The notes beneath the pieces are model-generated. The model saw nothing but the letters and a program-made list of their open reading frames with translations. It was not told where the DNA came from and made no database searches. From Verrucomicrobiia bacterium (GTDB lineage Bacteria; Omnitrophota; Omnitrophia; Omnitrophales; Aquincolibacteriaceae), in NCBI GenBank assembly GCA_035495615.1, contig DATJFP010000051.1, positions 364 through 64,363 on the forward strand: 64,000 bases of DNA, given 5' to 3'. Position numbers and translations under genes: made by a program. Positions 1,963 through 59,336 of this stretch are shown here, one piece after another (the stretch's first letter is position 1; each line of letters opens with the position of its first letter).

Positions 1963-2511
1963 ATGAAAAAAAGCGTTCTGTGTTTCGTCTTTATGGCGGG
2001 AGGAGTTTTTTTCGCGGCGTCTTCGGCCCGGGCGGTGACCGTGAAGAATATATCGGACCAGCCTATAGCGGTCGAGCGCTACGGCGAAACCGTCACGATC
2101 CCGCCGCAGGGATACGAATTTGTTTCGGACGCCGCGGCCAACGAGCCCGGGTTCCGGCAGATGATCCGGTCCAAGCAGCTCATGATCGTGAGAGACCCGG
2201 CGAAACAGATCCAGCCCAAGCTCACGGAAGCCTACTGCCGGTCGGACGATTATCCGGACGATGCGCTTTACTGCTGGATGGATCTTGCCGAGCAGGACGG
2301 GGCGCCGCAGTACTGCGAAGCGTTCGATTCCTGGGGCGGAATGAAAGAATGTCTCTATTACGTGGACCGCAAGCGCAAGGTCACGGTCGCGGACTGCAAC
2401 TGGTTCGATCCGAAGAACCCGAATCGCCAGAACTGCATCGACTACGTGAACTCCGGCATTCCTTCCAAGCCGGGACGCAGTTATGAAGAGTCCCTCAAAC
2501 TTTCCAATTAA
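1963..2511 (+). CDS. Secreted hypothetical protein
   Basis: Starts 2 nt after the upstream stop. N-terminal signal peptide (AASSARA). Several Cys and Trp in the C-terminal half. Confidence 0.55.
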   Translation: MKKSVLCFVFMAGGVFFAASSARAVTVKNISDQPIAVERYGETVTIPPQGYEFVSDAAANEPGFRQMIRSKQLMIVRDPAKQIQPKLTEAYCRSDDYPDDALYCWMDLAEQDGAPQYCEAFDSWGGMKECLYYVDRKRKVTVADCNWFDPKNPNRQNCIDYVNSGIPSKPGRSYEESLKLSN

Positions 2512-2670
2512 GAGCCGGACGAGAGCGGGGGCCGAAGCGGGTTACAGTTTGCGCCGGGCGGCGACGATAGTTTTCCGTACGAGTTTCCTGCGCCTTCCGG
2601 CCGCCGGCATTTTCTCAGATCTTATTAAAAAGCGTCCCAAGGGCAGTCTTAATTCTCAGGAGAAAAACTT

Positions 2671-3330
2671 ATGAAGAAATTATTCGGAACGGTTTTGGCG
2701 GTGATGATGGCGTTGACCTTGCCGGTGCCCGCGGCTTTCGCGCGGCCCGCGATCCTGGACCGGCGCGCGCCGGAAAAACAGCGGGCGGATATCGAGAAGC
2801 GGTCGCGGGAAGTCCTGGATCTTCTTTATAAAACGAAACCCGAAACCAAAGCGGTCGTGGAATCCGCGTACGGCTATGCGACGTTCAGCAATTTCGGCGT
2901 GAAAATCTTTCTCGCGGGAAGCGGTTCCGGGCGCGGGGTCGCGGTGGAAAATGCCACCGGCAGGAAAACCTTCATGAACATGGCCGAAGTGCAGGCCGGG
3001 CTCGGGCTGGGCGTGAAGAAGTTCATGTTGGTCTGGATTTTTACCAACGACAAGGCGTTCAATCAATTCGTGAATTCCGGCTGGTCCATTGGCGGCCAGG
3101 CCTCGGCCACGGCGAAAGCCGGCGGCGTGGGCGGCGCTTACGAAGGCGCGATCCCGATTGCCTCGGGCATCTGGCTCTATCAGCTGGCAGGTTCCGGCCT
3201 GGCGCTGGAGCTGACGGCCAAGGGCACCAAGTATTACAAAGACAATGACCTCAACGCCTCCGCCGAAGCGCCCGCGTCCGCGGGAGGAAACGATCTTCGA
3301 GAAAAAATGCAAAAGGCCAAGAATTCTTAA
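2671..3330 (+). CDS. SYLF (Ysc84/DUF500)-like lipid-binding domain protein, secreted
   Basis: Signal peptide followed by Gly-rich blocks (FLAGSGSGRGVAVEN, GGQASATAKAGGVGGAYEG, YQLAGSGLALELTAKG) typical of bacterial SYLF domains. SD-like GGAGAAAAA precedes the ATG. Confidence 0.5.
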   Translation: MKKLFGTVLAVMMALTLPVPAAFARPAILDRRAPEKQRADIEKRSREVLDLLYKTKPETKAVVESAYGYATFSNFGVKIFLAGSGSGRGVAVENATGRKTFMNMAEVQAGLGLGVKKFMLVWIFTNDKAFNQFVNSGWSIGGQASATAKAGGVGGAYEGAIPIASGIWLYQLAGSGLALELTAKGTKYYKDNDLNASAEAPASAGGNDLREKMQKAKNS

Positions 3331-3387
3331 CTTTCCGTTCCGGAAAGTCATGGCCGCGCGCAAACGCCTGCGGTAGAATCCTCGCCT

Positions 3388-4674
3388 ATGTACTGCCAGA
3401 AATGCGACTCCTACATCCCCGACGGGCTGGGCCTTTCCGCGTGTCCCGCATGCAGCATTGATTTGAACGCCTTTCCGCCGAAAGCGCGCGTCCGTGCGGT
3501 TCAAGCGCCCGCGGCACCGGCGGCCAAAGCCGGGCCGGTTAAAAAGGCGGGGAAAAAACCCAGCCTGCTTTTATTCCTGATCGGCGGCGTGCTTTTGGGA
3601 ATTCCGGGCGCGGTGGTGCTGGTGAAGCTGCGGCCGGCGGAAGAAGTCAAAGCGCCGGCCGCGGATCCGGCGGCCACAGCCACGGCCGCAGTGACGGCGC
3701 CCGCGGCCGCCGCGCAATTCACATCGGTTCCCACGCCGCGCTCGAGCGGCGAGATTCCCTGGGACCGCTTCGAGCTGAAGCCCGATCTCGAAGGCGCCAA
3801 GCACGACATCCGCGTGATTCTCCAATGGCTTATCGACTCGGACTTTCCCGGCTCCGAAACCATCCTGAAAAATTACCTCGCGGCGGTCGACGTGATGGGG
3901 GAAATGCCGTCGCCTTTTATTTTTACGAAAACGCATTCGGCGATCGGCGTCAATGTCTACGTGGACCCGCAGGCGCTGTCGAAATTCCTGGGCGAGGCCG
4001 TGGAAAAAAGATCGCCGGATTATTTCTGTTACATGATCGCGTCTCTCGTCGTGCAGGAGGCCTGGGGCTACGAATATTTCCATACCCCGAAAGCGGCGAG
4101 GGAACTGGAGGAGCTGCAGAAAATTCATGACCGCAAATCGGACGATCCGCAGGTCTATGTCAATGCGGTCCGGTTTTTGATGGCGCCCTGGGGGAACCAG
4201 CAGCTGGTCAAAAGTTTCTTCGAGCGGGACGGGGACGACATCGTGAAGCGCGCGGCCATGACTTTCTCGATGGAGGCTTTTGAGCTGACGGAAAAAAAGG
4301 AATTCGAAGCCTGGGCCGTGCGCAAGGGATTGATTTCCGAAGGACGCCTAAAGCCCATCGTCGGCCCCGCCATTAACCAGTGGCTCCAGGGACGCCTGCT
4401 CATCGCGGACATGAACGACAACGAGAGAATCTGGTTCGGGTTGAGCCAGCTTATCCCGATCAACGTGACCGCTCTTCAAGGCGGGCAAATCAACGACGAG
4501 TCGTTCACCTACGGCTTGTACGGCATTTACGAGATCTGGCGCTTTGTGGTGTCCGGCGGCAGCGAAGGCGTGGATCCCAACGCCATTGCCTCCGCGCAGA
4601 CCAAAGGCCTGCCGCCTCCCTCGGCCTTCAAGACCATCTCACCCCAATTTTTAAAATACGTCAAAGAACCCTAG
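3388..4674 (+). CDS. Zinc-ribbon N-terminal, single-pass membrane protein (hypothetical)
   Basis: N-terminal CxxC-x13-CxxC (CQKCD...CPAC), one TM helix (LLLFLIGGVLLGIPGAVVLV), Ala/Pro-rich linker, then a ~300 aa globular domain with no recognised motifs. Confidence 0.55.
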   Translation: MYCQKCDSYIPDGLGLSACPACSIDLNAFPPKARVRAVQAPAAPAAKAGPVKKAGKKPSLLLFLIGGVLLGIPGAVVLVKLRPAEEVKAPAADPAATATAAVTAPAAAAQFTSVPTPRSSGEIPWDRFELKPDLEGAKHDIRVILQWLIDSDFPGSETILKNYLAAVDVMGEMPSPFIFTKTHSAIGVNVYVDPQALSKFLGEAVEKRSPDYFCYMIASLVVQEAWGYEYFHTPKAARELEELQKIHDRKSDDPQVYVNAVRFLMAPWGNQQLVKSFFERDGDDIVKRAAMTFSMEAFELTEKKEFEAWAVRKGLISEGRLKPIVGPAINQWLQGRLLIADMNDNERIWFGLSQLIPINVTALQGGQINDESFTYGLYGIYEIWRFVVSGGSEGVDPNAIASAQTKGLPPPSAFKTISPQFLKYVKEP

Positions 4675-4874
4675 GCCATAGCCCTACACGCAGATGGGCA
4701 TCCTCCGGACACCCAAAGAGCGTTTTTCCTCTGGGCCGGTTTTCTCTCCTCAGGCATGCTTTTTCATAGACGGAAGGTGAGGGGGAACGCCCTCTGAGAA
4801 AGACCGTCAGATTGCCTAAAACTCAGTTTTATAAAGGGTTACAAAAAATGGCGGGAACCGGTGGTTTTTGACGG

Positions 4875-4903
4875 TTGGATTTTGGGGGCGTTTTCCTTAT
4901 AAT
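4875..4903 (+). promoter_or_regulatory. Sigma70-like promoter candidate (TTGGAT-17-TATAAT)
   Basis: -35-like TTGGAT at 4875-4880, 17-nt spacer, perfect -10 TATAAT at 4898-4903, about 50 nt upstream of the ATG at 4955. It lies in a 280-nt intergenic gap. Confidence 0.4.
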
Positions 4904-4954
4904 ACGTGAATATTCCTGCCGTTTTGGACGCCACAGGCGCAGAGGGACCTTCTT

Positions 4955-5359
4955 ATGAATCAATCACACAATGAAATCTGGGACGAAGAATTGGCCGAGC
5001 GCCTGCTGATGAACAGTCAGGCCTGGGAGCTGCTTTTGGAAAAAGGCTACACTCCGGGGCAGAAGACGCGCGTCGAGTTTACGTTCGTAACCGAGAAGCG
5101 CGCCAATGCTCTGAAGCTCAAAGCGTTTTTGGAAACCAAGCCCGGTTACACGATCAAGGTCATCAATAACGATGACGAGTTCGAAGTCGCCTGCCACGCC
5201 GACATGGAGCTTTCGCTCGAAAGCCTGAACCCCTGGGTGACGATGATGGTGCAGGAGGCCCGCAAATGCGACAGCATGTTCGACGGCTGGATTGCGCCGC
5301 AAATCCTCATGGGCAAGGCCATGGAAGGCAAGCTCGAAATCGGGGCCGTTGATTTCTAA
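4955..5359 (+). CDS. Small cytoplasmic hypothetical protein (possibly RraB-like)
   Basis: 134 aa acidic ORF with balanced composition. Followed by a strong intrinsic terminator. The RraB resemblance is from memory only. Confidence 0.5.
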   Translation: MNQSHNEIWDEELAERLLMNSQAWELLLEKGYTPGQKTRVEFTFVTEKRANALKLKAFLETKPGYTIKVINNDDEFEVACHADMELSLESLNPWVTMMVQEARKCDSMFDGWIAPQILMGKAMEGKLEIGAVDF

Positions 5360-5379
5360 GGAATCCGCCCCGCAATAAA

Positions 5380-5418
5380 CCAGGAGAAAGGTCTTTGGAC
5401 CTGTCTCCTGGTTTTTTT
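5380..5418 (+). terminator. Rho-independent terminator
   Basis: CCAGGAGAAAGGTC-TTTG-GACCTGTCTCCTGG stem-loop followed by TTTTTTT. Confidence 0.8.
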
Positions 5419-5422
5419 ATGC

Positions 5423-5731
5423 CTAAATGCCGGGCTTGGGCTTGTTCGCGTAGTGCTCGCCGCGGAGATTGGTGCGGATGAAGACTCCGACCTCAGGGGC
5501 TTTCGGCGGACGCGGAGCGCGGGGTTTGCTATCCGGGCGGCGAAAATCCCGGCCGCGGTCTTTGCGGTGGAAGTGCGGCTTGGAATCCCGGGAGAAGGGG
5601 CGCGGCGCGCGTGAAGGCGCCTGCCGTGACGCTGCCGCCAGGAGATCGATCTTTTTCTCAAGGGCCGCGAGTTTCTGGAGGATGTCGCTAAGGGCGGCCG
5701 TCAAAGATTCTTTCGGGGAAGACTCGTTCAT
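5423..5731 (-). CDS. Small basic protein with N-terminal coiled-coil (hypothetical)
   Basis: Start MNESSPKE is supported by an AAAGGA SD 6 nt upstream on the minus strand. Arg/Pro/Lys-rich C-terminus. The N-terminal motif is shared with the divergent neighbour. Confidence 0.5.
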   Translation of the reverse strand: MNESSPKESLTAALSDILQKLAALEKKIDLLAAASRQAPSRAPRPFSRDSKPHFHRKDRGRDFRRPDSKPRAPRPPKAPEVGVFIRTNLRGEHYANKPKPGI

Positions 5732-5840
5732 AGGGTTCCTTTTAAGGCTGATTTGCGCTAGTGTATAGCGAAATGGCCGCGCAAGGGGATTTATTATGGC
5801 CGGGCCTGGTGCCAACGGCCACATCACAAAAAGGAAAGCG

Positions 5841-6363
5841 TATGAAAAAGAAAACGGCAAAAGCAAAAGTGTCGAAGAGCGGTTCCAAACGCTCCCAGGG
5901 CGGAGGGCTGGAATTGCCGAGCTTCGTGGACGCCATGACGAAACTCGTGCAAAGGCTCGAGTCGCTCGAAGGCAAGGTGGATGCTGTCATCAGCCGCGTA
6001 TCGAATCTGGCCTTCGAAGTGCGGAACGCGGGCCATGCGCCGCAGCGCGCCGAACAGAAGCAAAGCCCGGGCCAGCCTGAGCGCCGCGAACGCGTCATGT
6101 ATCAGGCCGTCTGCGCGGACTGCAAAAAAAGTTGCGAAGTCCCTTTTAAACCGAGCGAAAGCCGGGCAGTCTATTGTAAGGAGTGCTGGGCGCTCCGGAA
6201 ATCCGGCCACGCGCCGCAGGATCCGGACATGCGGAGCAAGGTCAGCCCCGAGCGCAAGGCGCAGTACATGCCGCCTGCCATGGATTACACGCCGGAAAAG
6301 TCCGGGGCCGTGGCCGTGCTCAAGGGCAAAAAGGCCGCGAAGGCGACGAAGAAGCGCAAATAA
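5841..6363 (+). CDS. CxxC-x17-CxxC zinc-ribbon domain protein with basic N- and C-termini
   Basis: AAAGGA SD 5 nt before the ATG at 5841. Central CADCKKSC...17 aa...CKEC motif. Lys-rich tails. Confidence 0.55.
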
Positions 6364-9498: not shown

Positions 9499-9577
9499 TT
9501 ACGGCGAAAGGCCGTTCGTGTTATATTTGAACGGACTTATCGGGCCGTTCAAGATAGATCATCATGATGGAGGTTTT

Positions 9578-10006
9578 ATGAACGTGGACTCATTGACCGC
9601 GGCCGAGGTGATGAACCGGAACGTAAAGACGCTCTCCCGCAGCTCAAAGCTCAAGGAACTGATGCGGTTTTTGATGGAGAACCACATCTCCGGCGTGCCC
9701 GTCGTGGACGAGCAGAGCAAATTCGTCGGCGTGGTTTCGACTACCGACGTGCTGCGGCGCATCACGCTTCAGATCGCGCTCAAAGAAGAATTCGCCTCGA
9801 CCGACCTCGCGGAAGTCATCGACAAGACCATTGAGTCCATCATCAGCCGGCCGCTTTTCAATTTCAAGGAAACGGACAGGATCAAAGACATTGCCAAGGT
9901 CATGATGGAAAAAGGCATTCACCGCGTTTTCATCGTGGACGGCGGCAACAATCTCAAGGGTGTGATCTCGGCCATGGATTTCGTGAAGCTCGTGGGAAAG
10001 AGCTGA
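9578..10006 (+). CDS. CBS domain pair protein
   Basis: Two CBS motifs (ISGVPVVDEQSKFVGVVSTTDVL and GIHRVFIVDGGNNLKGVISAMDFV). GGAGG SD 5 nt upstream. Confidence 0.8.
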   Translation: MNVDSLTAAEVMNRNVKTLSRSSKLKELMRFLMENHISGVPVVDEQSKFVGVVSTTDVLRRITLQIALKEEFASTDLAEVIDKTIESIISRPLFNFKETDRIKDIAKVMMEKGIHRVFIVDGGNNLKGVISAMDFVKLVGKS

Positions 10007-10127
10007 TGAACCGCGCCTACGTCATTCTGACCGTGGGATTCTTGATCGTGGCGGCGACGGCCGGGGCAGATATAAAAATGGGGGCAGGTCCTGGGACCTG
10101 TCCCCGCTTCTTTCAGGCGGGTGGCTG

Positions 10128-10710: not shown

Positions 10711-11604
10711 TTAGGCGGCTTCGGCGCGCGGGACCGCGAATTCCTTGGGCGCTGCGCTGAGGCCGTGCCGGGCATTGTACGATTTCGTAAAGGATGCGCC
10801 CCAAAAAAGAATGACCGCCGAATAATAAACCCACAGCATGAGCACGACGATGGTTCCCGCCGCGCCATAAGTCGACGCGACATGGCTTTTTCCCAGATAC
10901 AGCCCGATCAGATTTTTTCCCACTTCGAAAAACAGCGCGGTCGCCAGGCCGCCGACCCAGGAACTTCGCCAGGGAATCTTTGCGTCCGGAAGAAACTTGA
11001 ACATGGAAGCGAAGAGAAGGCTCGTGATGCCCAAAGCAAAGGCCATTTCGAAGAATTTGATCGCGGCGGCGAACACTTCCGGCATGAACTGCGTCATGTA
11101 ATGCCAGAAGGAGGCAAGCAGCGCGCTCACCGCGAGCGAGACGAGGAGAAGGAAAGAGATGCCGAGCACCATGCCGAGCGACAAAAAACGCTGGCGGATC
11201 ATGAGCAGCCAGGCCTTGGCCTGCCGGGGTTTGGTTTTGACTTCCCAGATTTTGTTGAAGCACCGCTGCAGCTGCGTGAACACGCCCGTGGCGCCGACGA
11301 CGAGCGTGGCAAGGCCCGCGGCCGTCGCGATCCGGCTGGCCTGCGGATGGTAGGCATGCTCGATCATGGTCTGGATCGTGGCCGCGGCATCGTCGCCCAC
11401 GAGCCCGCGGATCTCGCCGAAAAGCGAGCCGGTCACCGCGTCCTGGCCGAGAAAAAGACTGGCCACCGCGATGATGACGATGAGCATGGGCGCCAGCGAA
11501 AAAATAGTGTAGTAGGCGAGAGAGGCGGCCATGTTCATGCAATCGGCCCGGCTGAATTCCCGGAAAGAGTCTTTGATGAGCTGAAAGACGCCCGGCTTTT
11601 GCAT
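10711..11604 (-). CDS. YihY/BrkB family inner membrane protein
   Basis: N-terminal AASLAYYTIFSLAPML motif and six TM segments typical of the YihY (ribonuclease BN-like) family. Confidence 0.75.
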   Translation of the reverse strand: MQKPGVFQLIKDSFREFSRADCMNMAASLAYYTIFSLAPMLIVIIAVASLFLGQDAVTGSLFGEIRGLVGDDAAATIQTMIEHAYHPQASRIATAAGLATLVVGATGVFTQLQRCFNKIWEVKTKPRQAKAWLLMIRQRFLSLGMVLGISFLLLVSLAVSALLASFWHYMTQFMPEVFAAAIKFFEMAFALGITSLLFASMFKFLPDAKIPWRSSWVGGLATALFFEVGKNLIGLYLGKSHVASTYGAAGTIVVLMLWVYYSAVILFWGASFTKSYNARHGLSAAPKEFAVPRAEAA

Positions 11605-18203: not shown

Positions 18204-18208
18204 AAAGG

Positions 18209-18258
18209 CCCCTCTCCCTAACCCTCTCCCCAAGATGGGGAGAGGGAAGGGTGAGGGG
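18209..18258. terminator. GC-rich hairpin (CCCTCTCCCC-AAGAT-GGGGAGAGGG), probable terminator after slyX
   Basis: Perfect 10-bp inverted repeat with an outer imperfect pair. No T-tract follows, so it may act as a factor-dependent terminator or RNA stabiliser. Confidence 0.45.
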
Positions 18259-18266
18259 AATGAATC

Positions 18267-19184: not shown

Positions 19185-22100
19185 ATGCGCCTCCTTACGT
19201 TCTGCAAAAAAACAACGGCCCTTTTTCTCTGCGCATCCCTGCTGCTTTCCGACGGCTCTCTTTATGCCGCGGCCACGGCCACGCCGTCCCAAGAGCTCGC
19301 GTTCCGGCTTCCCAAAACCTTCGCGGAGGTGCAGGAATCTTTCCGCGGGACTTCGGGGAAAACCATTTTTTATCTCCAGGACGCGCACGATTCGCTGGAA
19401 GCGCAGCGCAACATTGCCCGCAGCATCCGGTTTCTCGTCGAGAAGTACGGCGTGCGCACGGTTTTCGAAGAAGGCTACGAAGGCCCCGTGCCCACGGCGC
19501 GTTACTTCGGCTTCATGAAGGACGCGGCGGCGCGCAAAAAAGTCTCGGATTTCCTGCTCGACAAACTCAGGATCGGCGGCGCGGAGTACGCGCACATCAA
19601 CCGCGCGCACGACTTCAGGCTGATCGGCGCGGATGATCTTGCCAAATACAAAAAGAACCTGGCGGCTTACCGCGAATCCGCGCGGCATCAGAACGAAGTG
19701 GAGCGCGACCTGCGCGCGATTTCCGCCCTCGTCGAAGCGCTCGTCCAGCGCGATTTCCCGAAACCGCTCAAAGACTGGCTGAAGCTCCGCGACCGGCACG
19801 AAGCCGGGCAGGCGGACCTTCTGGATTACGTGAGGCGCGCCGTGAAGATGGCGGAGAATCCCGCGGGCGCGCCGCATCTCGCTCTTCTGGCCGAGGCTCC
19901 GGAATCTTCGGAAGCCGCGGCGGAACTTGCCGCCGTGGAGCCCCGCGCGATTTTCGAAGAGCTCGGCACGCTCGAGCAGGCCATTGCCGCGCCATTCCTG
20001 AAAACGCCCCGCGACCTCGAGCTTTTCCGGTACCGCGAGGCGCTTCACCTGCTGCTGCGGCTGAACCGGAGGGACGTGACGTCCTCGGAGTACGAGGCCT
20101 CGCAGCAGACGCTGGCCGACCTCGACACGCAGAAGCTTGCCGGATTTCTCGCGCGCGAGACCGGAAAATCCCTGGCGCTTTCCAGGGCCTGGGAGAAAAG
20201 CCTGCGGACCGCCTCGCTTTTTTACGAGACCGCGCTCGAGCGCGACGGCGCGGTCGAGGCCGCGCTTTCGAAGTTCCTGCGGGAGCCCGGCGAAAACGCG
20301 GCCGTCCTCGTCTACGGCGGCTTTCACAAAGACAACATCCTCGCCATCCTCAAAAAGCTGGGCGTTTCCTATCAGGTGGCCGCGCCCGCCATTCCCGCGC
20401 CGGATCCGGTGCATGAAAATTATTACCGGCAGCTCATGACGCTCGGCAGCCTCGCGTACGAACGGCCTTTCATGGCCGCGGGCGCGGCTGCGAAAGCCAC
20501 ACGCGCGCCGTCGTCGTTCGTGGAACCGTTCGGCGAAGCCGTGATCGGCGGCCTTTACCGCGCGGCCTCGCGCAATCCCCGCGTTTCCGCGGAGCTTCTC
20601 GACCGCGTGCTGGAAACATCGGGCAAATCCGAACTGCGGCGGCTGGACGACTTCAAGCTCAAGCGGCTGACCTACATCGATCTCGAGGGAGCCGAGATGG
20701 ACGAGCTCCTCGGCATTTACCAGCACATCCGCGAAAGCATGGAAGCTTCCGGCTATGAAGCGCTCGAGGAATTCGGGGACGACAGCCGTTTCCTTCATGT
20801 CGTCGAGAGTTTGAAAGAGACGAGTTACGGCATCACGAACGGGGAAGGCAACCTCGTCGGTTTTGTTTTGAATAACCCCTATCCCGCGGCAGGCGATGCT
20901 TACCTGGGCATCGAGCTCATCGGCATCGATCCGGAATATCAGCGGGAAGGATTTGGGCGCCGTCTTCTCGCCATGAGCCAGGTGCTCGGACGCAAGCTCG
21001 GGAAAAAGGCGCTCGCGATCGACGTGGATCCGCAGAATCTTCCGATGATCCGGCTTGCCCTCGGATTCGGTTTTCATTTCGTGGACCGGAACTGGAGGCG
21101 CCGGCGTTACGCGGGCATGATCAAGAACATTCCGCCGCTTAACGGCCACGACTCCAAAGCCGGCCGCGCGGAACTCCGCACCGGTGCCGATGCACCGGTA
21201 CAGCCAAACATTCCGCGCGCCGAACGCGCGGAATTGCGCCGCCTCAACGAGGCCCATACCGCCGCTGTCGTATCGATTTCCGATCTCGACGACGACGAGA
21301 CAGACGGCTTGCTGGGAGTTTATCAAGGCATCCGCGAAAATATGCTCCGCCAGGGCTTCGAACCTTATCAGGAATTTCAGGACGACGAAATGTTCGTTTC
21401 CGAAATGGAGAGGCTGGAGGAGGCAAGTTTCGCGGTGACGGATCAAGACGGAAACATGGCCGGCTTTATTTTGAACGATCCCGAGCCCGATGTGGGAGAG
21501 CAATATCTCGAAGTGGAGCTGATGGGCGTCGATCCCGGCCAGCGCCGGCAGGGCCACGCGCTCCAGCTTCTGGCCGCGAGCCAGTCGCTTGCCCGCCGGT
21601 GGGGAAAAACGGCGCTGTGGCTGGAAGTCGAGGCCAGCAACACTTCGGCCATCCGGCTTTATAAAGGCTTCGGCTTCAAGACCGCGGGCCGCGGCGAAGA
21701 GTCCGGTTACATTGTGATGAAGAAATACCTCCGGCATCACGCCCACGGCCAGCGTGAGGACAGATTCCGCGCGGAGCTGCGCTCGATCTATGAGCCCTGG
21801 CTTTTGAAACTGGCGGCCGACGCGCGTGTCGGCGTGAGGGATTTCGAAAGCACGGGCAAAGGTTTTCTCAAAATGACCGCCCAGCCGTTCGCGGACGGCG
21901 TGGTCGCGGCGTTTCCGGCGGATGCGCGGGGAAAAGTTTTTGTCGCGGGAAGCGGGCAGGGCCTTTTCGAAGTGAAGCTCGCGAAGGAGCGCCCGGGACT
22001 CTCGATTTTCGGCGTGGAATACGATCTCGGGCTTTTGGGCGACAGCCAGCGAATCGCGGCAAAGGCCCAGGAGCAGAAAATCATCAATCCCGGGCAGGTT

Positions 22101-25100
22101 ATTTTTCAGGGCGGCGACTTCAACGGCGCGGAATTCGGCGCCCGCATTGCCGAAGCGGATTATGTTTACTACTACGACGGCGGCACGAAAAAACCGGACG
22201 ACCTGGCGGAAACGCTTATCCGTTCCATGAAACCGGGCGCGCGCCTGATCGTGTTCGGTTCGCAGCGCTGGGAGCCGGATTTTGTGGACGCGCTGCGCCG
22301 CTCGGGCTCTTTCAAGCTCGAAACCGATGATCGTCCGGTTTATGTGCTCCTCCGGGAAGACCAGCCGTGGAAAACCGAAAACCGCGCTGAGCTCCGCTCC
22401 GGCGTCCCGCAGTGGCTGGAAGAGCTGATGCGCGAAAAGGGCATCGCGCTGCGGGCCGACGAAAGCACGGAGGCCGGAATTCTCGTGCCCACGGCGGGCC
22501 AGGCCGCGGCGCAGGTCATCAGTGCCGTGCCGGAAAAAACAAAGTTGAATATTTTTGCCGCGGGAAGCGGGCAGGGGATTTTCGAGCTGCAGCTTGCCAA
22601 AGAAAGGCCGGACGCGGAAATCTTCGGCGTCGAATATCATCTGGGCGCCCTCGGTGAAAGTCAGGCCCTTGCGGAAGAAGCAGAGAAAAGAAACCTCATC
22701 AAACCGGGGCAGGTCCAATTCGCAGGCGGGAATTTCAACAAGCCCGACTTTGCCGGCCGCATCGCGCAGGCGGACATTGTTTATTATTTTGACCAGGGAA
22801 CGAAGTTCCCCGAAGAATTCGCCGAAACACTTCAGCGTTCCATGAAAGCCGGCGCCCGCCTCATCGTCCTGGCCGCGGGCTCACGGGAGCCGCATCTTTT
22901 GGATGCGCTGCGCCGCTCGCTGGCGTTCGAAACGGAAAGCGCGGCCCATCCCGTCTATGTTCTCCGCCGTCTTGAAGCCGAAGGAGATGCCGCGCAAGGC
23001 CGCGCGCTTCTGAGGCAGTGGATGAAAAACGCGCCCGCCCTTCTCGAGCGTCCGGCGCTGGGCGCCGTGGTCGCGCTGCCTCCCGCGGGCACGAAACTGG
23101 ATGCCGATCCGGCGCGCCATGAACTCATGATGACGGCGCTTGTGGAGCGCCTCGTCGAAATCTACCGCGGCAATTTCCCCGATGCCTCTCCCGAAGAGAG
23201 AACGCCGGAGCATTGGCGCAAACAGCTGGAAGACCCGGACCTGCGCCTGCTCCTCAAAGTCGACACGCAGGGCCGCATCGAGGGCATGCTGGTGGCGCAA
23301 AATTGGGGAGTGGAACGCCCCACGCTGATGCTGAAAACCGTGGCGGTCACGTTCGAAGAGCAGCTGAAAAAGAAGGGGGCCATGCTCCTGGATGCTTTCC
23401 TGCGCGAAGTGCACGCGGCGGGCCTTGCCGCGGACATCTGGTGGCTGACCAACTTCAGGGTGATCTCGCTTTATAAAACCTATTTGTCCCGCCGCGGCAT
23501 TCCCTTTCGCTTTGATGATTACAACAAGTTCGAAGTCTCGGTCAAGGATCTGCGGGACTTCGTGAAGTCCAGCCGCTTTCCGCCTCCGAAACAGCCCGGC
23601 GATGTCGAGGCCCGTCTCGCCAAAAGAGTGCAGATCTGGGAAAAGACATATACGCTGGCCCACGTCGTGCGCGCGCTCGAGCACCGCTCAGGCCAATGGA
23701 GGCTGGGGCCCGCGATGTTCGAAGAGCTCGGCGAGGAAGACAAGGTCCTTGTCCTGGCCGCGCTTTCCGGAGAAACCCGCCGGCGTCTGGATTTTAATCT
23801 TTTGATCCAGGAATCGTGGGACGACGCCATCGCCCAGGCCGGCGGCGACGCGGGCAAAGCGCTGACGGCCCGCGAAAACGGCGCCGCGCTGCGGAAACTT
23901 TTGAGCACCCAGGTCTTCGAGGTTGGAAAACGTTTCGATGCGACCGGCATCGAAAACGGGTTCGACGACCTGGCGCAGATCATGCTGGAAGGCAAGGTGC
24001 GCTCGGACCATCACGGCTCTCTTATCGGCCATGCTCAATTCGGCGACACGGCCTCCGGGCTGCACGGCCCGCTCTACGTTGTGTTCAAAAAACGGACCGC
24101 GGATGAAACCTGGCGCGAAAGGGACAACCACCTTTATTACCTCGTTCCCGAATGGAGCGACGCGCGCGCCTACGTGATCCTGCTCCAGAAAGCCGCGGCG
24201 CGCCATTTGATTCTGCCGGAGCTCGCGGCCTCGATCGCGCAGAAAATCATCACCTACCGGCAGTTCGTGGACCGGAATTCAGAGCTGCGTTCCGCGGACC
24301 GGCGTTTGTCTCTGGAAGAAATTCTCGGGCCGGAACACGTTCAAATCATGGACCGCTTTTTCGCCGAAGGCTATTGGATCGAGCTCGAAGGCGCCGGCCG
24401 TGAAAGAAAGGTTCTTGTTCACCATCGTGATCCTTCGAAATTCCGCGCCTACCAGGAGCCGCCGGGAAAATATTCCCTCGTCGAGGCAGAAAATGGGACA
24501 GCCCAGCTCAGCGGCATTTATCCCGGCCTTCCTCAAAATACCCAATTCGGCCGCATTTTCATCGCGTTGTCGCTGCTCATGCTTTATGGGGACCGCGAGG
24601 CGCGCAAAATTTTTGAAATCCATGCTATCCAGAGCAAGACTTTGGCCGGAAGCCTGCAGAAGCTCGGGGCCTTCGGAACCGCATCGATCTACCCCGCGGC
24701 CGCGCACGGCGCCTATGCCGATGTCGCCATCCGCGGAAGCGTGCCATTAATCGACGAGGCCGGAGCCGCCGAGATCCGCCGGCGGAATGACCGCAATAAA
24801 TCTGCCGGGGAACAGCAACACCCCGAATTGCGCGGGTTGGAAGAGGTTCGCGCCTATCTGGACAGCCGGCCGCACGCGGTTTGGTATGCAAGCTACGACG
24901 AAGCCGGGCAGGAATCCGTCGAGTACGTGAATCCTGCGTTCGCGAAAATATTCGGCACCACCGCGGAGGACATCCTCGCCAAGAAGACGTATGCGGCGAT
25001 CAACCCTCCGGGTGCGCCCATCGACAAGTACAAGGCCGACGACCGGAAGGCGATGAAACGCGGCCTGTTCGCGGCGCGCGAAGGCGAGCCCGCCGTTACG

Positions 25101-44270: not shown

Positions 44271-44888
44271 ATGAAGAAAGTTTTCTCGATCGCCCTCATT
44301 CTGTCCCTGTTTATCCTGCCCGGCCTGTCTTTCGCCGACAACCCGCCGGCTCAGGGCGGAGCGGCGCTTCCTCCGGGCGTGACGGCCGAAGACATGGCCC
44401 GCATGACCGAGATGACCACGCCAAACGAAAATCATCAGAAGCTCAACGCGCTGGTCGGAAAATTCAAAGTGAAGACGTCATGGCAGATGGCCGCGGACGC
44501 GCCGGTGCAGACTTCCGAAGGCGAAGCCGAAGGGAAATGGATCCTGGACGGGCGCTTCGTGGAGCAGCACTTCAAAGGCGATTTCATGGGCAAGCCTTTC
44601 GAAGGCCTGTCTCTCACCGGCTACGACAACATGAAAAAGGAATACAGCGCCGTGTGGCTGGACAGTGTGGCGACCGGCATGATGAAGTCCACGATGAAAT
44701 ACGATGACGCCACGAAGTCGTTCAGCGAAGAAGGCAAATTTTCCTGCCCCATGACCGGCGAGACGGACAAAGATTACCGCGCCGTCACGACGATCGTCGA
44801 CGACAACAACTATAAGTACGAGATGTATCAGAAGGGCAAGGACGGCAAGGAATTCAAGGCCATGCAAATCGATTATACGCGCGCCTGA
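44271..44888 (+). CDS. DUF1579-like secreted protein
   Basis: Signal peptide. Lipocalin-like beta-strand pattern with KxKxS/T repeats. AAGGAGAA SD. Putative promoter TAGACT-17-TACAAT upstream. Confidence 0.5.
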
Positions 44889-44913
44889 GCGCCGCGGAGC
44901 GGGAGCGTTCTAA

Positions 44914-44945
44914 AAACGCCGGGCCAAAAGCCCGGCGTTTTTTTG
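44914..44945. terminator. Bidirectional rho-independent terminator
   Basis: AAAAACGCCGGGC-CAAAA-GCCCGGCGTTTTTTTG. The stem is flanked by an A-run and a T-run. Confidence 0.85.
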
Positions 44946-45010
44946 TTCAGGAAGTCCGGGATCCCGGCCGTCAATCCCAGGGAAACCGGTTGAACCGCGG
45001 GAGGGATTTC

Positions 45011-45400
45011 ATGAAGCGCGAGACCTTGGCGCAGGCTATGGAGCGGCTCGGAATTAAAGAAGCGGACCTCGAAGAATCCTTTGTCGCGTCCGGCGGTCCC
45101 GGAGGCCAGAACGTCAACAAGGTGGCGACGTGCGTGGTGCTCAGGCACGCGCCCAGCGGCATCCTGATCAAATGCCAGCAGGAACGTTCGCAGGCGATGA
45201 ACCGTGAGGCCGCGCGGCGCATCCTCGTGGAAAGAATCGAAAGGCGGGAGCGCGAGCGCAAAGAAAAAGAAACCCGCCGTCTCGCCAAGATCAAACGGCA
45301 GAACCGCCGGCGTTCGAAAGCAGCCAAAGATAAAATGCTCGCGGCCAAGAAATTTCACGGCAGGAAAAAAGAGTACCGCAGGCGAGTCGAAGAAGATTAA
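45011..45400 (+). CDS. arfB: Alternative ribosome-rescue factor ArfB (peptidyl-tRNA hydrolase, GGQ family)
   Basis: [14 protein letters not shown] motif plus a basic C-terminal tail ([18 protein letters not shown]). Confidence 0.85.
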
Positions 45401-45406
45401 ACCGGT

Positions 45407-45490
45407 GAGCATGGACGGGGACAGGTCTTTAGCCCTGTCCCCAAGGCAGCGAGTGCAGGAGGCCTGTTGCAAGCATAGCGTTTGCGGTGG
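45407..45490. repeat. Intergenic repeated element, copy 1 (hairpin GGGGACAGGTC-TTTAG-CCCTGTCCCC plus conserved 3' tail)
   Basis: About 80% identical over ~85 nt to 58114..58200. Lies between convergent gene ends. Confidence 0.6.
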
Positions 45491-45493
45491 GAA

Positions 45494-47071
45494 TCACCAC
45501 TCGGTCGGTTTGTAGTCCTTGAGAAATTTTCCCCAGACGTGCCGGCCCGTCAGCAGTCCATCGAACAGCGGGTCGAGCAGGCGCGCGGCGCCGTCCACGA
45601 TGTCGAGCGGCGGCTCGAAGTCATGCATTTCCTTCTTGGCTTCGGAAAGATGCGCCGGATCTTCATCCGTCACCCATCCCGTGTCCACCGCGTTCATATG
45701 GATTCCGTTTTTCACGTAATCACGCGCGGATGTCCACGTCATCATGTTGAGCGCGGCTTTCGCCATGTTCGTGTGAGGGTGCTTGTCGGTTTTCGTGTAG
45801 CGGTTGAATTTGCCTTCCATGGCGGACGCGTTGACGATGTGCTGTTCGCCCGTGGAATGGCGCATCATGAGCGGCTTCAACTTGGCCGCGAGAATGAACG
45901 GCGCGACCGCGTTCACCAGATGCACTTCCAGCATTTCCGGCGTGGCCACGTCGGCCAGCGCCAGGCGCCAGGTATTGATCTGCCGCAGGTCTTTCTGCTG
46001 CAGATCCGCGTCCAGCTTTCCTTCCGGAAAAACTTCCAGGGTCGACTGCGTTTCCTCGTCGAAATCGTATGGCACCATGGCCAGCTTCGCGGACGCGCGG
46101 ATGCCGATGGCGGGGCTTTTGCCCGGCCAGGTTTTCAGCAGCGTGTTTTCCAGATTTTCCTGCTGGAGCGGCAGGAGCTTAGCCTCGAGCGCGTGGATGC
46201 AGTTTTCGTGAGCTTTCAAAAGCGGGCGCAATTCGGACGGAAGCTCGTCGACGTGCTTGGCCTCCCATTCCATCAGATGGCGGTAAAACCCGGGCGGCTT
46301 GCGCACGGTCTGCGCCGCGTTGTTGATGATGACGTCGAGCCGTTCTTCGGTGTTCAAAAGATAGCGCGCGAACATCTCCACGCTCGGCGAATGACGCAGG
46401 TCGAGCCCGTGAATCTGCAGCCGGTTCTTCCAGACGCCGAAATCTTCCTCGCGCGAAAAACGCAGGGCCGAGTCATTGGGGAAACGCGTGGTCACGATCG
46501 TTTTCGCGCCCGCACGCAGGAGTTTCAGCGAGGTCTGATAGCCGATCTTGATGCGTCCGCCGGTGACGAGGGCAGTGCGACCGTCCAGAGGCGCCGACTG
46601 GAAGCGCTTCTTATAATTAAGGTCGCCGCAGTCCACGCACATGGCGTCATAGAAAAAATGCACCTTCGTGAAGCGGACCTTGCAGGTATAACACTGGCGA
46701 GAGCGCAGGAATTCCGCGGCATGATCCTCCGGCGCCTCGATTTCCTTGGGCGCTTCGAAGACGGTCCGCTGGCGGGCCCGGCGGATGCCCGTCGTGTCAC
46801 GCACCGCCCAGTCGTGCTCCTTGCGCTTCTGGTTGCGCAGCTTCCGGGAGGCGCGCGCCGTGCGCCGCTGGTCTTCGATCACCGGATGGGCAAGACTGCC
46901 CGCCGCCTTCATCAGGCGAATGCGGTCCTGCTGCGAGATGGATGCCATGCTGGCCGGGTCCGCAGCCATGGCTTCGAGCGCGCGCAGACAGGCTTCGAAT
47001 TCTTCGGGGGAAAGCCGTGCCGTAGCCTGCGGTTTTTCGGGATTGACGGAAGGATCAGAATTGTCGGGCAT
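45494..47071 (-). CDS. SDR family NAD(P)-dependent oxidoreductase with a ~170 aa N-terminal extension
   Basis: TALVTGGRIKIGYQ Rossmann motif and a NNAAQT-like segment. The N-terminal extension contains C-x2-C...C-x2-C. Confidence 0.65.
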   Translation of the reverse strand: MPDNSDPSVNPEKPQATARLSPEEFEACLRALEAMAADPASMASISQQDRIRLMKAAGSLAHPVIEDQRRTARASRKLRNQKRKEHDWAVRDTTGIRRARQRTVFEAPKEIEAPEDHAAEFLRSRQCYTCKVRFTKVHFFYDAMCVDCGDLNYKKRFQSAPLDGRTALVTGGRIKIGYQTSLKLLRAGAKTIVTTRFPNDSALRFSREEDFGVWKNRLQIHGLDLRHSPSVEMFARYLLNTEERLDVIINNAAQTVRKPPGFYRHLMEWEAKHVDELPSELRPLLKAHENCIHALEAKLLPLQQENLENTLLKTWPGKSPAIGIRASAKLAMVPYDFDEETQSTLEVFPEGKLDADLQQKDLRQINTWRLALADVATPEMLEVHLVNAVAPFILAAKLKPLMMRHSTGEQHIVNASAMEGKFNRYTKTDKHPHTNMAKAALNMMTWTSARDYVKNGIHMNAVDTGWVTDEDPAHLSEAKKEMHDFEPPLDIVDGAARLLDPLFDGLLTGRHVWGKFLKDYKPTEW

Positions 47072-57900: not shown

Positions 57901-58099
57901 TTCCTGGGGCGCGGGCTCGGAAACCATGACGCCCATGGCCGTTTCCGTCATCGGCGGCGTGACCGTTTCCACGATCCTCACTCTTTTCGTCGTGCCCTGC
58001 GCCTACCTTGCTTTCTCACGTTTCGAGAAACAGGTCTATCAGAAGCCCGAAGACGGCGCGCCCGCGCCCTCCTCCGCGCCCTTACACGCGAAAAAATAA
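54968..58099 (+). CDS. RND efflux permease (AcrB/HAE1-like)
   Basis: 1043 aa. Canonical 12-TM AcrB architecture (NPVFAWVLM..., GLTLVIGIVVDDAI..., second half paralogous). GTG start overlapping the TolC stop. Confidence 0.9.
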   Translation: MTLSDYSIKNPVFAWVLMAGILVFGWVGYKRLGVSQLPDVDFPVVTVSVTWEGAAPEVMETEVTDVIEDAVMSVEGIKEVTSNSQQGQASITIELNLNRDIDAALQDVQTKIAQAQLNLPRDIDPPIVTKTNPEDQPIMWLALSGDRPFKDLVHYVSETLKDQFTTVSGVGDIRLGGYVDPNLRVWLDAAKMREKELTVEDVLNAITTQHSDLPAGYIDTGHKEINVRVYGEAATAEAFSNLIIPSRVRGGPVWTDLHIGDIGKVEDGLADERRISRTGGKRAIGIGIIKQRGTNAVSVAEAVKKKAEALKPMLPDGMQLTVVFDATKFIEQSVHSLTMNLVLAALLTSIVCYVFLGSFSATFNVLLSIPVSIMGAFIIIYFLGFTINTFTMLGLTLVIGIVVDDAIMVLENISRYHEQGLERKEAAIIGARQITFAALAASIAILAIFVPVIFMQGVIGKFFFQFGITISVAVLFSLLEALTIAPMRCSQFLTVGHSTRLGKFMDDRMHALSRRYEQALRFCLDHRKKVLAVSLGVFILSFQLTKGIKKEFVPSQDQSRFLVRLVLPLGTSIEETDALFKKAEAFLMTQPALNKYYSAIGGFTGGQVNTGMLFVTMKDKKDRPKVNGHPMTQQEFMGVVRKEFSGLPNVERAIIQDLSQSGFTAQRGFPVEFTLRGPDWTKLADYGKQIMDKMKESGLMTDIDTDYQLGMPELRVLPDRTKASQQGVSVSSIATTINAMIGGVRNGKFTNNGKRYDIRVRLNQADRASPDDVKGIWVRNQYGEVVPLSDVVTSNIEPSLFSITRKNRERAISIFANPAAGHSQQEAIDYVRTMSDKVLEGEYHAVFSGGSQAFAESFKSLVFALLMGIFVAYMVLATQFGSFIHPFTVLLALPFSVTGAFAALFISRNSMNLYSMIGLILLMGIVKKNSILLVDFTNEQRHQGKAPREALLEACPVRLRPILMTSIATVAAAIPEALSWGAGSETMTPMAVSVIGGVTVSTILTLFVVPCAYLAFSRFEKQVYQKPEDGAPAPSSAPLHAKK

Positions 58100-58113
58100 T
58101 CCGCTGCTTAAAC

Positions 58114-58200
58114 GTGAGAGCATGGACGGGGACAGGTCTTTAGACTTGTCCCCAAGGTTTTGAGAGCAGGAGGCCGGATGCAAGCGTGCAAGCGTTCGCC
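58114..58200. repeat. Intergenic repeated element, copy 2
   Basis: GTGAGAGCATGGACGGGGACAGGTCTTTAGACTTGTCCCCAAGG...GCAGGAGGCC...TGCAAGC. Matches 45407..45490 with stem-preserving substitutions. Confidence 0.6.
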
Positions 58201-58283
58201 GCAAAACGGCTTCCCGAAGAAACACGGCTCTTGCAATCCACGCATCTCCCGAGGACAATAGACCCCATTACTGGAGGTGTCCC

Positions 58284-59336
58284 ATGCTCACGATGCTGAA
58301 GACCAAAGGTTATGCCGCCACTTCGCCCACCGCGCCGCTTTCTCCTTTTTCCTTCGACCGCCGCGAGCCCGGCCCGCGCGACGTCCTGATCGAGATCCTT
58401 TATGCCGGCATCTGCCACTCCGACATCCACCAGGCGCGCAACGAATGGGGGAACGCGACGTACCCCATGGTGCCGGGCCACGAGATCGCGGGACGCGTGG
58501 TGCGCACGGGCGCCCAGGCGAAAAAGTTCAAGGCCGGAGACGCGGTGGGCGTGGGATGTTTCGTGGATTCTTGCCGCGCTTGCCCGAGCTGCAAGGAGGG
58601 CGAGGAGCAATTCTGCGAAAAGCATCCTTCCTTTACCTACAACGGCACCGAGCAGGACGGCAAGACGCCCACTTACGGCGGCTATTCGTCGCAGATCGTG
58701 GTCGACGAAGATTACGTGCTGAGAATTCCGGCGTCGATCCCGCTCGATAAAGCCGCGCCGCTGCTCTGCGCGGGCATCACGACCTATTCGCCTCTGCGCC
58801 GTTTTAAGGTGGGACCCGGCATGCGCGTCGGGATCGTGGGGCTTGGAGGCTTGGGGCACATGGCCGTCAAGTTCGCGGCCTCGATGGGCGCGGAAGTCAC
58901 GGTCTTCAGCACCTCCAAAGCCAAAGAGGCGGACGCGCGCCGCTTCGGCGCCAAAGATTTCGTGATTGCCAAAGACCCGAAAGCGCTCGAGCCGCTGGCC
59001 GGGAGTTTTGATTTCATCCTGGACACCGCGTCCGCCAACCACGACTTGGACGCTTATCTCAACATGCTGCGCCGCGGCGGAACGCTCGCGCTCGTCGGCG
59101 CGCCGGAAAAGCCGGCCGAGTTCCACGTATTTTCGCTGATCATGAAGCGCCGCGGGATCGCGGGCTCCTTGATCGGCGGCCTCCGCGAGACGCAGGAGAT
59201 GCTCGATTACTGCGGCAAAAAAAATATCGCGCCCGACATCGAAGTCATTCCCGTCCAAAAAATCAACGAGGCCTACGCCCGCACGGTCAAAGGCGACGTG
59301 CGCTACCGTTTCGTGATCGACCTGAAAACGCTTTAA
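58284..59336 (+). CDS. Zn-dependent NAD(P) alcohol dehydrogenase (cinnamyl-ADH/YahK-like)
   Basis: GICHSDIH, GHEIAGRV, structural-zinc CxxCxxCxxxxxxxC, Rossmann GLGGLGH. Confidence 0.9.
   Translation: MLTMLKTKGYAATSPTAPLSPFSFDRREPGPRDVLIEILYAGICHSDIHQARNEWGNATYPMVPGHEIAGRVVRTGAQAKKFKAGDAVGVGCFVDSCRACPSCKEGEEQFCEKHPSFTYNGTEQDGKTPTYGGYSSQIVVDEDYVLRIPASIPLDKAAPLLCAGITTYSPLRRFKVGPGMRVGIVGLGGLGHMAVKFAASMGAEVTVFSTSKAKEADARRFGAKDFVIAKDPKALEPLAGSFDFILDTASANHDLDAYLNMLRRGGTLALVGAPEKPAEFHVFSLIMKRRGIAGSLIGGLRETQEMLDYCGKKNIAPDIEVIPVQKINEAYARTVKGDVRYRFVIDLKTL

Follow-up and report, generated by a model that had tools for sequence, protein, structure and literature searches.

What kind of element is the sequence of about 85 nt that occurs twice, in the same orientation, between the genes of contig DATJFP010000051.1 from a Verrucomicrobiia bacterium? 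The stretch analyzed here, referred to as the window, comprises 64,000 nt of this contig (positions 364 to 64,363 of the forward strand). A first-pass annotation of the window had noticed the two copies, had described their hairpin as covarying, and had proposed a structured RNA, either a terminator, a small RNA (sRNA), or an element resembling repetitive extragenic palindromes (REPs) or miniature inverted-repeat transposable elements (MITEs). We find that the copies belong to a multi-copy family located between genes, that its hairpin is near-invariant while the flanks drift, and that the run of T residues (T-run) of a terminator is absent. On balance, though with only modest confidence, we consider the copies to be a dispersed intergenic repeat of the type represented by REPs and bacterial interspersed mosaic elements (BIMEs), with a hairpin that would act in 3' untranslated RNA; this role at the RNA level is inferred from patterns in the sequence. 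The family is new and uncatalogued; the kind of element to which it belongs is known, and it is no new kind of RNA.

Two copies of a dispersed repeat

The covariance model R1, built from the repeat family and run with filters off, recovers both copies at full length on the plus strand of the window, copy A at 45403-45494 (84.3 bits, E 1.5e-20) and copy B at 58114-58208 (88.3 bits, E 1.2e-21), and finds no third full-length copy in the 64 kb. Such a search had been suggested by the first-pass annotation, and its two co-oriented copies are found where it placed them: they also appear as a direct repeat of 78 nt with 85% identity (45397-45474 and 58108-58185) and have in common the 23-mer CATGGACGGGGACAGGTCTTTAG, which occurs exactly twice against 0 expected from 100 shuffles. 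Both lie 3' of stop codons, as it had reported. Copy A occupies the entire spacer between the stop codon (45398-45400) of a gene for a 129-aa RF-1-domain ArfB-like protein and that of a convergent gene for a 525-aa SDR (45494-45496, minus strand), ending one base before the latter, and its hairpin starts 16 nt after the arfB-like stop. Copy B starts 15 nt past the stop codon (58097-58099) of an AcrB-family RND permease, with its hairpin 28 nt after this stop, and ends 85 nt ahead of the start at 58293 of a gene for an NADP-dependent alcohol dehydrogenase (ADH; 347 aa in the annotated form). The sequence that follows the stem, AAGGCAGCG in copy A and AAGGTTTTG in copy B, is not a T-run; the 9 nt after the hairpin hold no T in copy A and four in copy B, and a terminator scan calls neither of them.

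Related loci on other contigs are designated here by L numbers. A scan of the GTDB species-representative genomes, which evidently do not include that of the window, with the 21-base pattern GGACGGGGACAGGTCN9GTCCCC gave one true match (L001) and one chance match, the former being a truncated copy with 32 identical bases directly 3' of a stop codon at a contig end. In metagenomes the pattern CGGGGACAGGTCN9GYCCCC matched at least 116 loci, which fall into three groups: chance matches in coding sequence, many true hairpins with unrelated flanks, and a set that shares the flanks. Among the matches listed, thirteen share with the window copies both their tail and their 5' flank (GCATGGA); this flank-sharing set includes L004, L020, L026, L031, L036, L043, L045, L075 (two copies), L088, and L092. 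Three more full copies outside the scan pattern were found with an nhmmer profile (L031 2683-2771, L020 2668-2753, and L033 837-912), and at least 15 further full or truncated family copies are present on metagenome contigs. In spirit, these related copies run counter to the refuting condition set by the first-pass annotation, namely that the genome hold just the two. Plasmid and phage collections contain no match, and viral contigs contain one match to the stem pattern. The motif is absent from the searchable literature, where the 11-mer gave only chance matches in eukaryote primer lists. The family is probably lineage-restricted, belonging to uncultured Verrucomicrobia.

The unit measures about 90-95 nt. 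A short 5' flank (..CGTnGCATGGAC) leads into a G+C-rich stem of 11 bp that is closed by a loop of 4 nt, and a tail of about 50 nt completes the unit. The consensus hairpin is GGGGACAGGTC-TTTA-GACCTGTCCCC and the consensus tail AnGGnTTTGAATGCAnGAGGCC...GCGTGCA...AGCGTTTGC; in full the consensus reads nCGTnGCATGGAC-GGGGACAGGTC-TTTA-GACCTGTCCCC-AnGGnTTTGAATGCAnGAGGCCnnnnnGCGTGCAnGnnAGCGTTTGCnG. Outside the hairpin the copies are 46-77% identical to one another (mean about 58%), and the window copies form a subgroup with L126, the orthologous locus described below, at 69-77%. Beyond the hairpin, the homology between the window copies and more than 12 unrelated loci extends over about 60 nt.

Many metagenome contigs terminate at the hairpin or element, or within it (L001 1-43, L031 5278-5321, L092 2940-2972, L104 1-35, and L117 16-41), as would be expected if assemblies break at a multi-copy repeat. 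A 2,659-bp JGI contig that carries the window's ADH gene begins about 136 nt 5' of this gene, in or near the hairpin of copy B.

Structure and covariation of the hairpin

The 11-bp hairpin is the sole structure predicted by RNAalifold. Over 15 copies, 99.4% of the cells of this 26-nt unit are paired; eight stem pairs are invariant, two have one compensated double change each, and one has a G-U pair. The compensated changes in full copies are GGTT/AACC (L031b) and GGAC/GTCC (L020b), and the upper stem tolerates only compensated changes. Double changes occur at 7 of the 11 stem pairs in a set of 20 distinct arm pairs, which was chosen for having at least 10 pairs and thus shows which kinds of change occur but is no evidence for the pairing.

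The covariation claimed in the first-pass annotation had been read from the two window copies, and on that basis it does not stand: covariation between them is not shown because their 5' arms are identical (GGGGACAGGTC) and neither copy is changed on both sides of a pair. The 3' arms each depart once from the family consensus GACCTGTCCCC: in copy B a C-to-T change makes a G-U of a G-C pair, and in copy A an A-to-C change replaces a U-A pair by a U-C mismatch. The two copies alone are a conserved hairpin with no covariation between them, and it is in other family members that compensatory changes are present. The G-U of copy B pairs only when the plus strand is read as RNA.

An outer helix of 4 bp (GCAU with AUGC, 11 nt past the hairpin) is paired in 88% of cells. 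The one-sided changes, eight cells in this helix and one in the hairpin, are all G-U-compatible on the plus strand only. We regard the outer helix as weakly supported and prone to phylogenetic non-independence. An extended form (GGAC/GUUU plus GCAU/AUGC) is adopted by the consensus, and it was dropped as a feature of the copies on the ground that these fold in this way no better than shuffles (133/500); it is a possible feature of the ancestral unit, and the consensus suggests that the copied unit once folded as a longer imperfect hairpin.

In the tail no promoter, T-run, conserved open reading frame (ORF), or conserved fold was found, and its folding z-scores (mean -0.6 on the plus strand and -0.5 on the minus strand) are not unusual. 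Several candidates were rejected. A second hairpin in the tail (GCAAGC/GUUUGC) is paired in 67% of cells and its register shifts between copies, and a promoter (TTGAAT...) has no -10 partner and is not called by the scan. A micro-ORF of 13 codons, ATG GAC GGG GAC AGG TCT TTA GAC CTG TCC CCA nnn nTT TGA, is open in only 7 of 15 copies; the remaining copies have indels that put it out of frame, compensatory changes in the stem modify its peptide, and there is no ribosome-binding site 5' of it. A second ORF, after an AGGAGG block, has 27 codons in copy B and 3 in copy A.

The orthologous locus and selection on the hairpin

The contig L126 (901 bp) carries the closest ArfB protein (84% identity) and was reached via this protein, not via a DNA pattern. 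It is syntenic with window 44620-45490 over the DUF1579 gene, a terminator, and arfB, and it has the element at the same site, which shows that copy A has been at its locus since before the split from this relative. The hairpin is identical at 25 of 26 positions (96%) between window and L126, as compared with 75% in its 5' flank, 67% in the tail with few indels, 59% and 67% at the third codon positions of the two genes, and 49% plus 32 gap columns in the spacer 5' of arfB. From this comparison the hairpin is evidently under strong purifying selection, and the tail drifts at about the synonymous rate.

The contig L064 holds another arfB homologue, with a nucleotide identity of 68.6% across 271 nt. 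An identical 26-nt hairpin follows it, with different flanks and with a T-run on the opposite strand that serves the convergent gene. The hairpin is absent over about 90 kb of contigs with about 70% identical homologues of window proteins (45-50% G+C), and therefore it is not a deep clade character. Around the SDR homologues (70-76% identity) there is neither synteny nor a copy of the element.

The terminator 5' of arfB, orthologous between the window and L126, differs between them in its stem. In the window it reads AACGCCGGGC-CAAAA-GCCCGGCGTT followed by a T-run, and in L126 (300-345) AGGGACAGGC-CAAAA-GCCTGTCCCT followed by a T-run, with the same loop and tail. Double-sided changes affect four stem pairs, and the stem in L126, GGGACAGGC/GCCTGTCCC, is of the family type, which hints at a possible pull of the terminator stem towards the family stem sequence.

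A wider set of hairpins with the same stem

Without the flanks of the repeat, the stem GGGGACAG...CTGTCCCC occurs at many gene ends on other contigs, often with a T-run. These hairpins have many different loops and flanks, and they are found 3' of coding sequences and next to tRNA genes (L031; also L102). Their lower 8 bp are near-invariant across contigs with unrelated flanks, and the upper 3 bp covary (GATT/AATC, GACT/AGTC, GGAC/GTCC, GGTT/AACC). At least five T in the next 9 nt are seen in 1 of 17 family hairpins; among the matches listed that have the stem but not the family flanks, a T-rich tract follows on one strand in 26 of 72.

Within the window the 11-mer arm GGGGACAGGTC, allowing at most one mismatch, occurs 7 times against 0.7 expected, each time as half of a paired hairpin. 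Two further related hairpins, at 5383-5408 and 10080-10105, had been overlooked by the first-pass annotation. The former starts 24 nt past the stop of an RraB-family gene (4955-5359), scores 17.6 bits with R1 on the hairpin part only, and together with its T-run (to 5417) is a textbook terminator. The latter is located 3' of a CBS-domain gene (9518-10006) and has T-rich flanks on both sides, ATTTTTAT on the minus strand and CTTCTTTC on the plus strand. Four of the roughly nine strong intergenic hairpins of the window carry this stem, and the remaining ones have unrelated stems. The hairpins and both full copies are listed in Table 1.

Table 1. Positions of the repeat copies, their hairpins, and related structures in the window
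Feature	Position	Strand	Description
Copy A of the repeat, about 92 nt	45403..45494	+	R1 match; nhmmer match; orthologous copy 3' of arfB in L126
Copy B of the repeat	58114..58208	+	R1 match; nhmmer match
Hairpin of copy A	45417..45442	+	GGGGACAGG(TC)-TTTA-(GC)CCTGTCCCC; 9 contiguous pairs, U-C mismatch, closing C-G; no T-run 3'
Hairpin of copy B	58128..58153	+	GGGGACAGGTC-TTTA-GACTTGTCCCC; 11 pairs including one G-U
Possible outer helix of copy A	45409..45456	+	GCAU 45409-45412 with GUGC 45453-45456, around the hairpin
Related hairpin with canonical T-run	5383..5417	+	(CCA)GGAGAAAGGTC-TTTG-GACCTGTCTCC(TGG), then TTTTTTT; hairpin part 5383-5408
Related hairpin-only copy	10080..10105	.	GGGGGCAGGTC-CTGG-GACCTGTCCCC; matched by R1 on the hairpin part only
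Bidirectional-looking terminator between the DUF1579 gene and arfB	44912-44942	.	AAAAACGCCGGGC-CAAAA-GCCCGGCGTTTTT

Some additional features of these hairpins were observed. A possible 40-codon ORF (10008-10127, MNRAYVILTVGFLIVAATAGADIKMGAGPGTCPRFFQAGG and stop), which may be spurious, runs across the hairpin at 10080-10105 between the CBS-domain gene and the next ORF. On L046 (18.7 kb; 2177-6140 and 11294-11318) at least 8 hairpins with the common stem lie within about 9 kb, most of them at gene ends and two in tandem, with the upper stems GATT/AATC, GACT/AGTC, and GGGGACGG.../...CCGTCCCC. On several metagenome contigs the 3' arm ((A/C)CCTGTCCCC) recurs one to three more times 3' of the hairpin, in direct orientation and with a spacing of 12-15 nt (L011 5524-5585, L042 3100-3153, L028, L080 728-830, L095 305-401, and L053 55-140), and in L053 the hairpin is followed by tandem 31-nt units containing its 3' half. 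These extra arms may reflect slippage or alternative pairings.

Genomic context and a possible role in 3' untranslated RNA

Each of the 17 copies lies between genes or overlaps the end of one. In 11 of the 15 informative copies, a gene or tRNA of the same orientation ends shortly 5' of the element, and the hairpin usually starts 7-28 nt after that end. About eight copies lie between unidirectional genes, three or four between convergent genes, and three between divergent genes (L088, the minus-strand copy of L075, and L033), and the copy of L045 is antisense to both neighbours. Some copies fit tightly between co-oriented genes, for example with 1 nt and 17 nt to spare in L004 and 12 nt and 11 nt in L026, which argues against a strong terminator; in L043 the 5' ORF reads through the hairpin and takes its stop from the TGA of TTTGATGC. 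REPs of the GTAG- and CGTC-tagged superfamilies are likewise located mostly between unidirectional or convergent genes (PMC3733652), and the distribution of contexts matches theirs, being unlike that of a dedicated terminator or sRNA gene.

In the scenario that we favor, both window copies would be transcribed as the 3' untranslated region of the upstream gene, the arfB-like gene in one case and that of the AcrB-type permease in the other. The hairpin would form in the RNA; this fits the G-U pair of copy B and an outer helix that varies, on the plus strand, by G-U only. There it would serve as a 3' end-forming or exonuclease-blocking structure and probably cap or end the mRNA of the upstream gene, blocking 3'-to-5' decay and/or attenuating read-through, as REP hairpins do in operons of E. 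coli. The upstream message would thereby be stabilized, unlike what is expected of a classical intrinsic terminator made of a hairpin plus U residues. The tail and the 5' flank would mostly be inherited baggage of the copied unit.

A number of observations weigh against this scenario. A function at the 3' end cannot apply to the divergent and antisense copies (L088, the minus-strand copy of L075, L033, and L045), and the orientation bias of 11:4 is not significant. The scan pattern fixed 18 bases of the hairpin, so that invariance in the pattern-derived copies is partly by construction and the pattern-independent witnesses of its conservation are L126, L031b, L020b, and L033 only. Compared with L126, conservation is slightly higher in the tail than in the spacer beside it, and the tail may have a function. 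At the stem flanks the GTAG/CGTC tags of REPs are absent: the stem is flanked by GGAC (5') and A (3'), or by a paired C...G in hairpin-only copies, and GACG arises only by overlap with the first stem base. Six-frame translations of the window and all loci retrieved, about 0.8 Mb, contain no Y1/HUH (RAYT) motif. Moreover, no empty site or insertion polymorphism was found, so that mobility is conjectural; at the site of copy B, the closest ADH homologues are on 2-kb contigs, one of which has a 42-nt spacer before ADH and the other is not syntenic.

Alternative explanations

A rather different possibility, which we consider unlikely and yet worth keeping in sight, is that the stem-loop itself is a sequence-specific gene-end signal, clade-wide among G+C-rich (about 55-63%) uncultured Verrucomicrobia-like bacteria and read by a putative dedicated RNA- or DNA-binding protein. 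Copies would then arise and persist since the factor needs the GGGGACAG/CTGTCCCC stem base, and not by transposition; terminator stems would be pulled towards this sequence by conversion or selection, and the 85-nt repeat would be one vehicle and one flank context among others. Such a signal would suit the near-invariant lower 8 bp and covarying upper 3 bp seen with unrelated flanks, the identical hairpin 3' of the L064 arfB homologue with its quite different surroundings, the 7 of 7 window arms that sit in paired hairpins, and the terminator upstream of arfB, which keeps its loop and T-run through four double-sided stem changes and has the family-type stem in L126. The authors who described the 'Tuberculosis Rho-independent terminator' (TRIT) motif likewise proposed extra cellular machinery from sequence conservation (PMC3152330). 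Against it stand the absence of the hairpin over the 90 kb with homologues of about 70% identity and the conserved flanks of the 85-nt unit, which indicate common descent of whole units and are superfluous in a pure signal model. Should a specific factor indeed read the hairpin, it would provide an entry point to transcription termination or mRNA decay, two processes not known to have been studied in this phylum. We find it improbable, in turn, that the repeat acts at the DNA level only, its palindrome serving as a cruciform or single-strand hairpin for a transposase, recombinase, or nucleoid protein and its positions reflecting tolerated insertion sites. REPs are recognized by RAYT, gyrase, or IHF, and the perfect palindrome does not distinguish the strands, copies are found in either orientation and also between divergent genes, assemblies break at copies, and the hairpin is followed by extra 3'-arm copies in L011, L042, L080, L095, and L053. 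However, no transposase was found near any copy, neither target duplications nor terminal inverted repeats are visible, copy A has stayed at its locus through a split that left third-position identity at about 60%, and the one-sided changes, G-U-compatible on the plus strand alone, weakly favor RNA.

The remaining two explanations were already among the proposals of the first-pass annotation. It seems very doubtful that the copies are ordinary Rho-independent terminators duplicated by chance. They resemble intrinsic terminators in having a stable G+C-rich stem-loop shortly 3' of a plus-strand stop codon, and sister hairpins with the same stem do have T-runs, including the one at 5383-5417 and the 26 of 72 counted above. 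The window copies, however, have other sequences in place of the T-run and receive no call in the terminator scan, the family has a T-run in 1 of 17 copies only plus long conserved flanks that extend over some 60 nt outside the hairpin to more than 12 unrelated loci, and copies lie in tight co-oriented gaps or divergent spacers. With the T-run missing, the canonical terminator has to be given up. We give hardly any credence to an sRNA, be it the product of its own gene or one processed from a 3' untranslated region with a seed in the conserved tail. The blocks TGCA, GAGGCC, and AGCGTTTGC are indeed conserved in the tail, and the L126 ortholog has few tail indels. Yet no promoter-like site is present within 1 kb 5' of either copy on the plus strand, RNAalifold shows nothing beyond the hairpin, the tail is not unusually stable in either direction and its candidate helix is paired in only 67% of cells, and the hairpin lies at the 5' side, so that the tail has no terminator of its own. 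Rfam 15 gives no match at gathering thresholds on either strand of the whole 64 kb (no tRNA, riboswitch, leader, or known sRNA), and around each copy it yields noise only (E >1, at most 15 bits). Together with the heterogeneous genomic contexts this speaks against the sRNA proposal.

Comparison with known repeats

The REP-like option is the one supported, by a dispersed intergenic family with a conserved palindrome. REPs, with a palindromic unit of 20-40 bp, and BIMEs are short G+C-rich palindromes in multiple copies, extragenic, situated just 3' of coding regions in either orientation and in some cases overlapping gene ends; they are thought to act in transcripts through mRNA stabilization or termination, and BIMEs also have conserved non-palindromic sequence around the palindrome (PMC3733652). 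In this the present family is similar, and it too would act in transcripts. Its stem of 11 bp starts with GGGG, whereas the stems of CGTC families have 8-9 bp and start with A-T pairs (PMC3733652). Further differences, besides the lack of an unpaired tag, are that no RAYT gene was found in the 0.8 Mb, that no head-to-head dimers (REPINs) were seen, and that the family unit has an asymmetric tail of about 50 nt. Copy numbers seen are two full and two hairpin-only copies in the 64 kb of the window, and two to three copies per 17-32 kb on related contigs (three on one of 31.7 kb, two on one of 16.9 kb). Dispersed palindromic repeats are, to our knowledge, well described in Proteobacteria and a few other groups and hardly in uncultured Verrucomicrobia.

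MITEs such as Correia/NEMIS, ERIC, RUP, and BOX have terminal inverted repeats as their defining feature and are usually flanked by target-site duplications. The family resembles them as a non-coding intergenic repeat of about 100 nt, presumably co-transcribed with its neighbours and folding to a hairpin. Its inverted repeat, however, is internal (about positions 15-40 of about 95), its ends ..CGTnGCATGG and ..AGCGTTTGCnG are not complementary, and no target-site duplication is visible in 17 aligned flanks, in which the unit ends are fuzzy. For lack of terminal inverted repeats, a classical MITE, also proposed earlier, drops out.

The relation to the TRIT motif, known from Mycobacterium (Gardner et al., 2011; PMC3152330), is one of working analogy and not of homology. 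The TRIT too is a lineage-restricted palindromic hairpin, conserved in sequence and structure and scattered at gene termini, where it makes up a good share of the stable hairpins; the count to set beside this is the 4 of about 9 strong intergenic hairpins in the window. It behaves much as the 26-nt hairpin does, which is found near-unchanged at orthologous and non-orthologous gene ends while the surroundings drift. The two are unrelated in sequence, and TRITs are located mostly at about -8 relative to the stop codon (PMC3152330), as opposed to the usual 7-28 nt after it in the present family. No conserved tail has been described for the TRIT. Inverted pairs of DNA uptake sequences reportedly act as terminators in Neisseria and Haemophilus, in the work of Kingsford et al. 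from 2007 as cited in PMC3152330; the likeness is a fixed 10-12-mer that recurs as inverted pairs in gene-end hairpins. The difference is that the window arm never occurs singly (7/7 in hairpins), whereas uptake sequences are abundant as single copies. We know of no link between the family hairpin and competence. For genome annotation, the family and its covariance model aid in recognizing gene ends in metagenome-assembled genomes of this kind, explain contig breaks in assemblies, and prevent the repeats from being miscalled as sRNA genes.

Other repeats in the window

A second, unrelated intergenic repeat with an 11-bp hairpin lies at 18208-18260 of the window (CCCTCTCCCTAACCCTCTCCCCAAGATGGGGAGAGGGAAGGGTGAGGGG), in the gap that separates a stop codon from the following start. 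Its counterpart on L088 (5462-5515) matches it with 92.6% identity in 54 nt, and L088 also contains a copy of the 85-nt repeat. Finally, region 21931-22969 of the window contains direct repeats at a constant offset of 615 nt (21937-21996/22552-22611 with 80% identity, 22270-22354/22885-22969 with 72%, and 21931/22546), which looks like the tandem duplication of a gene or domain of about 205 codons.

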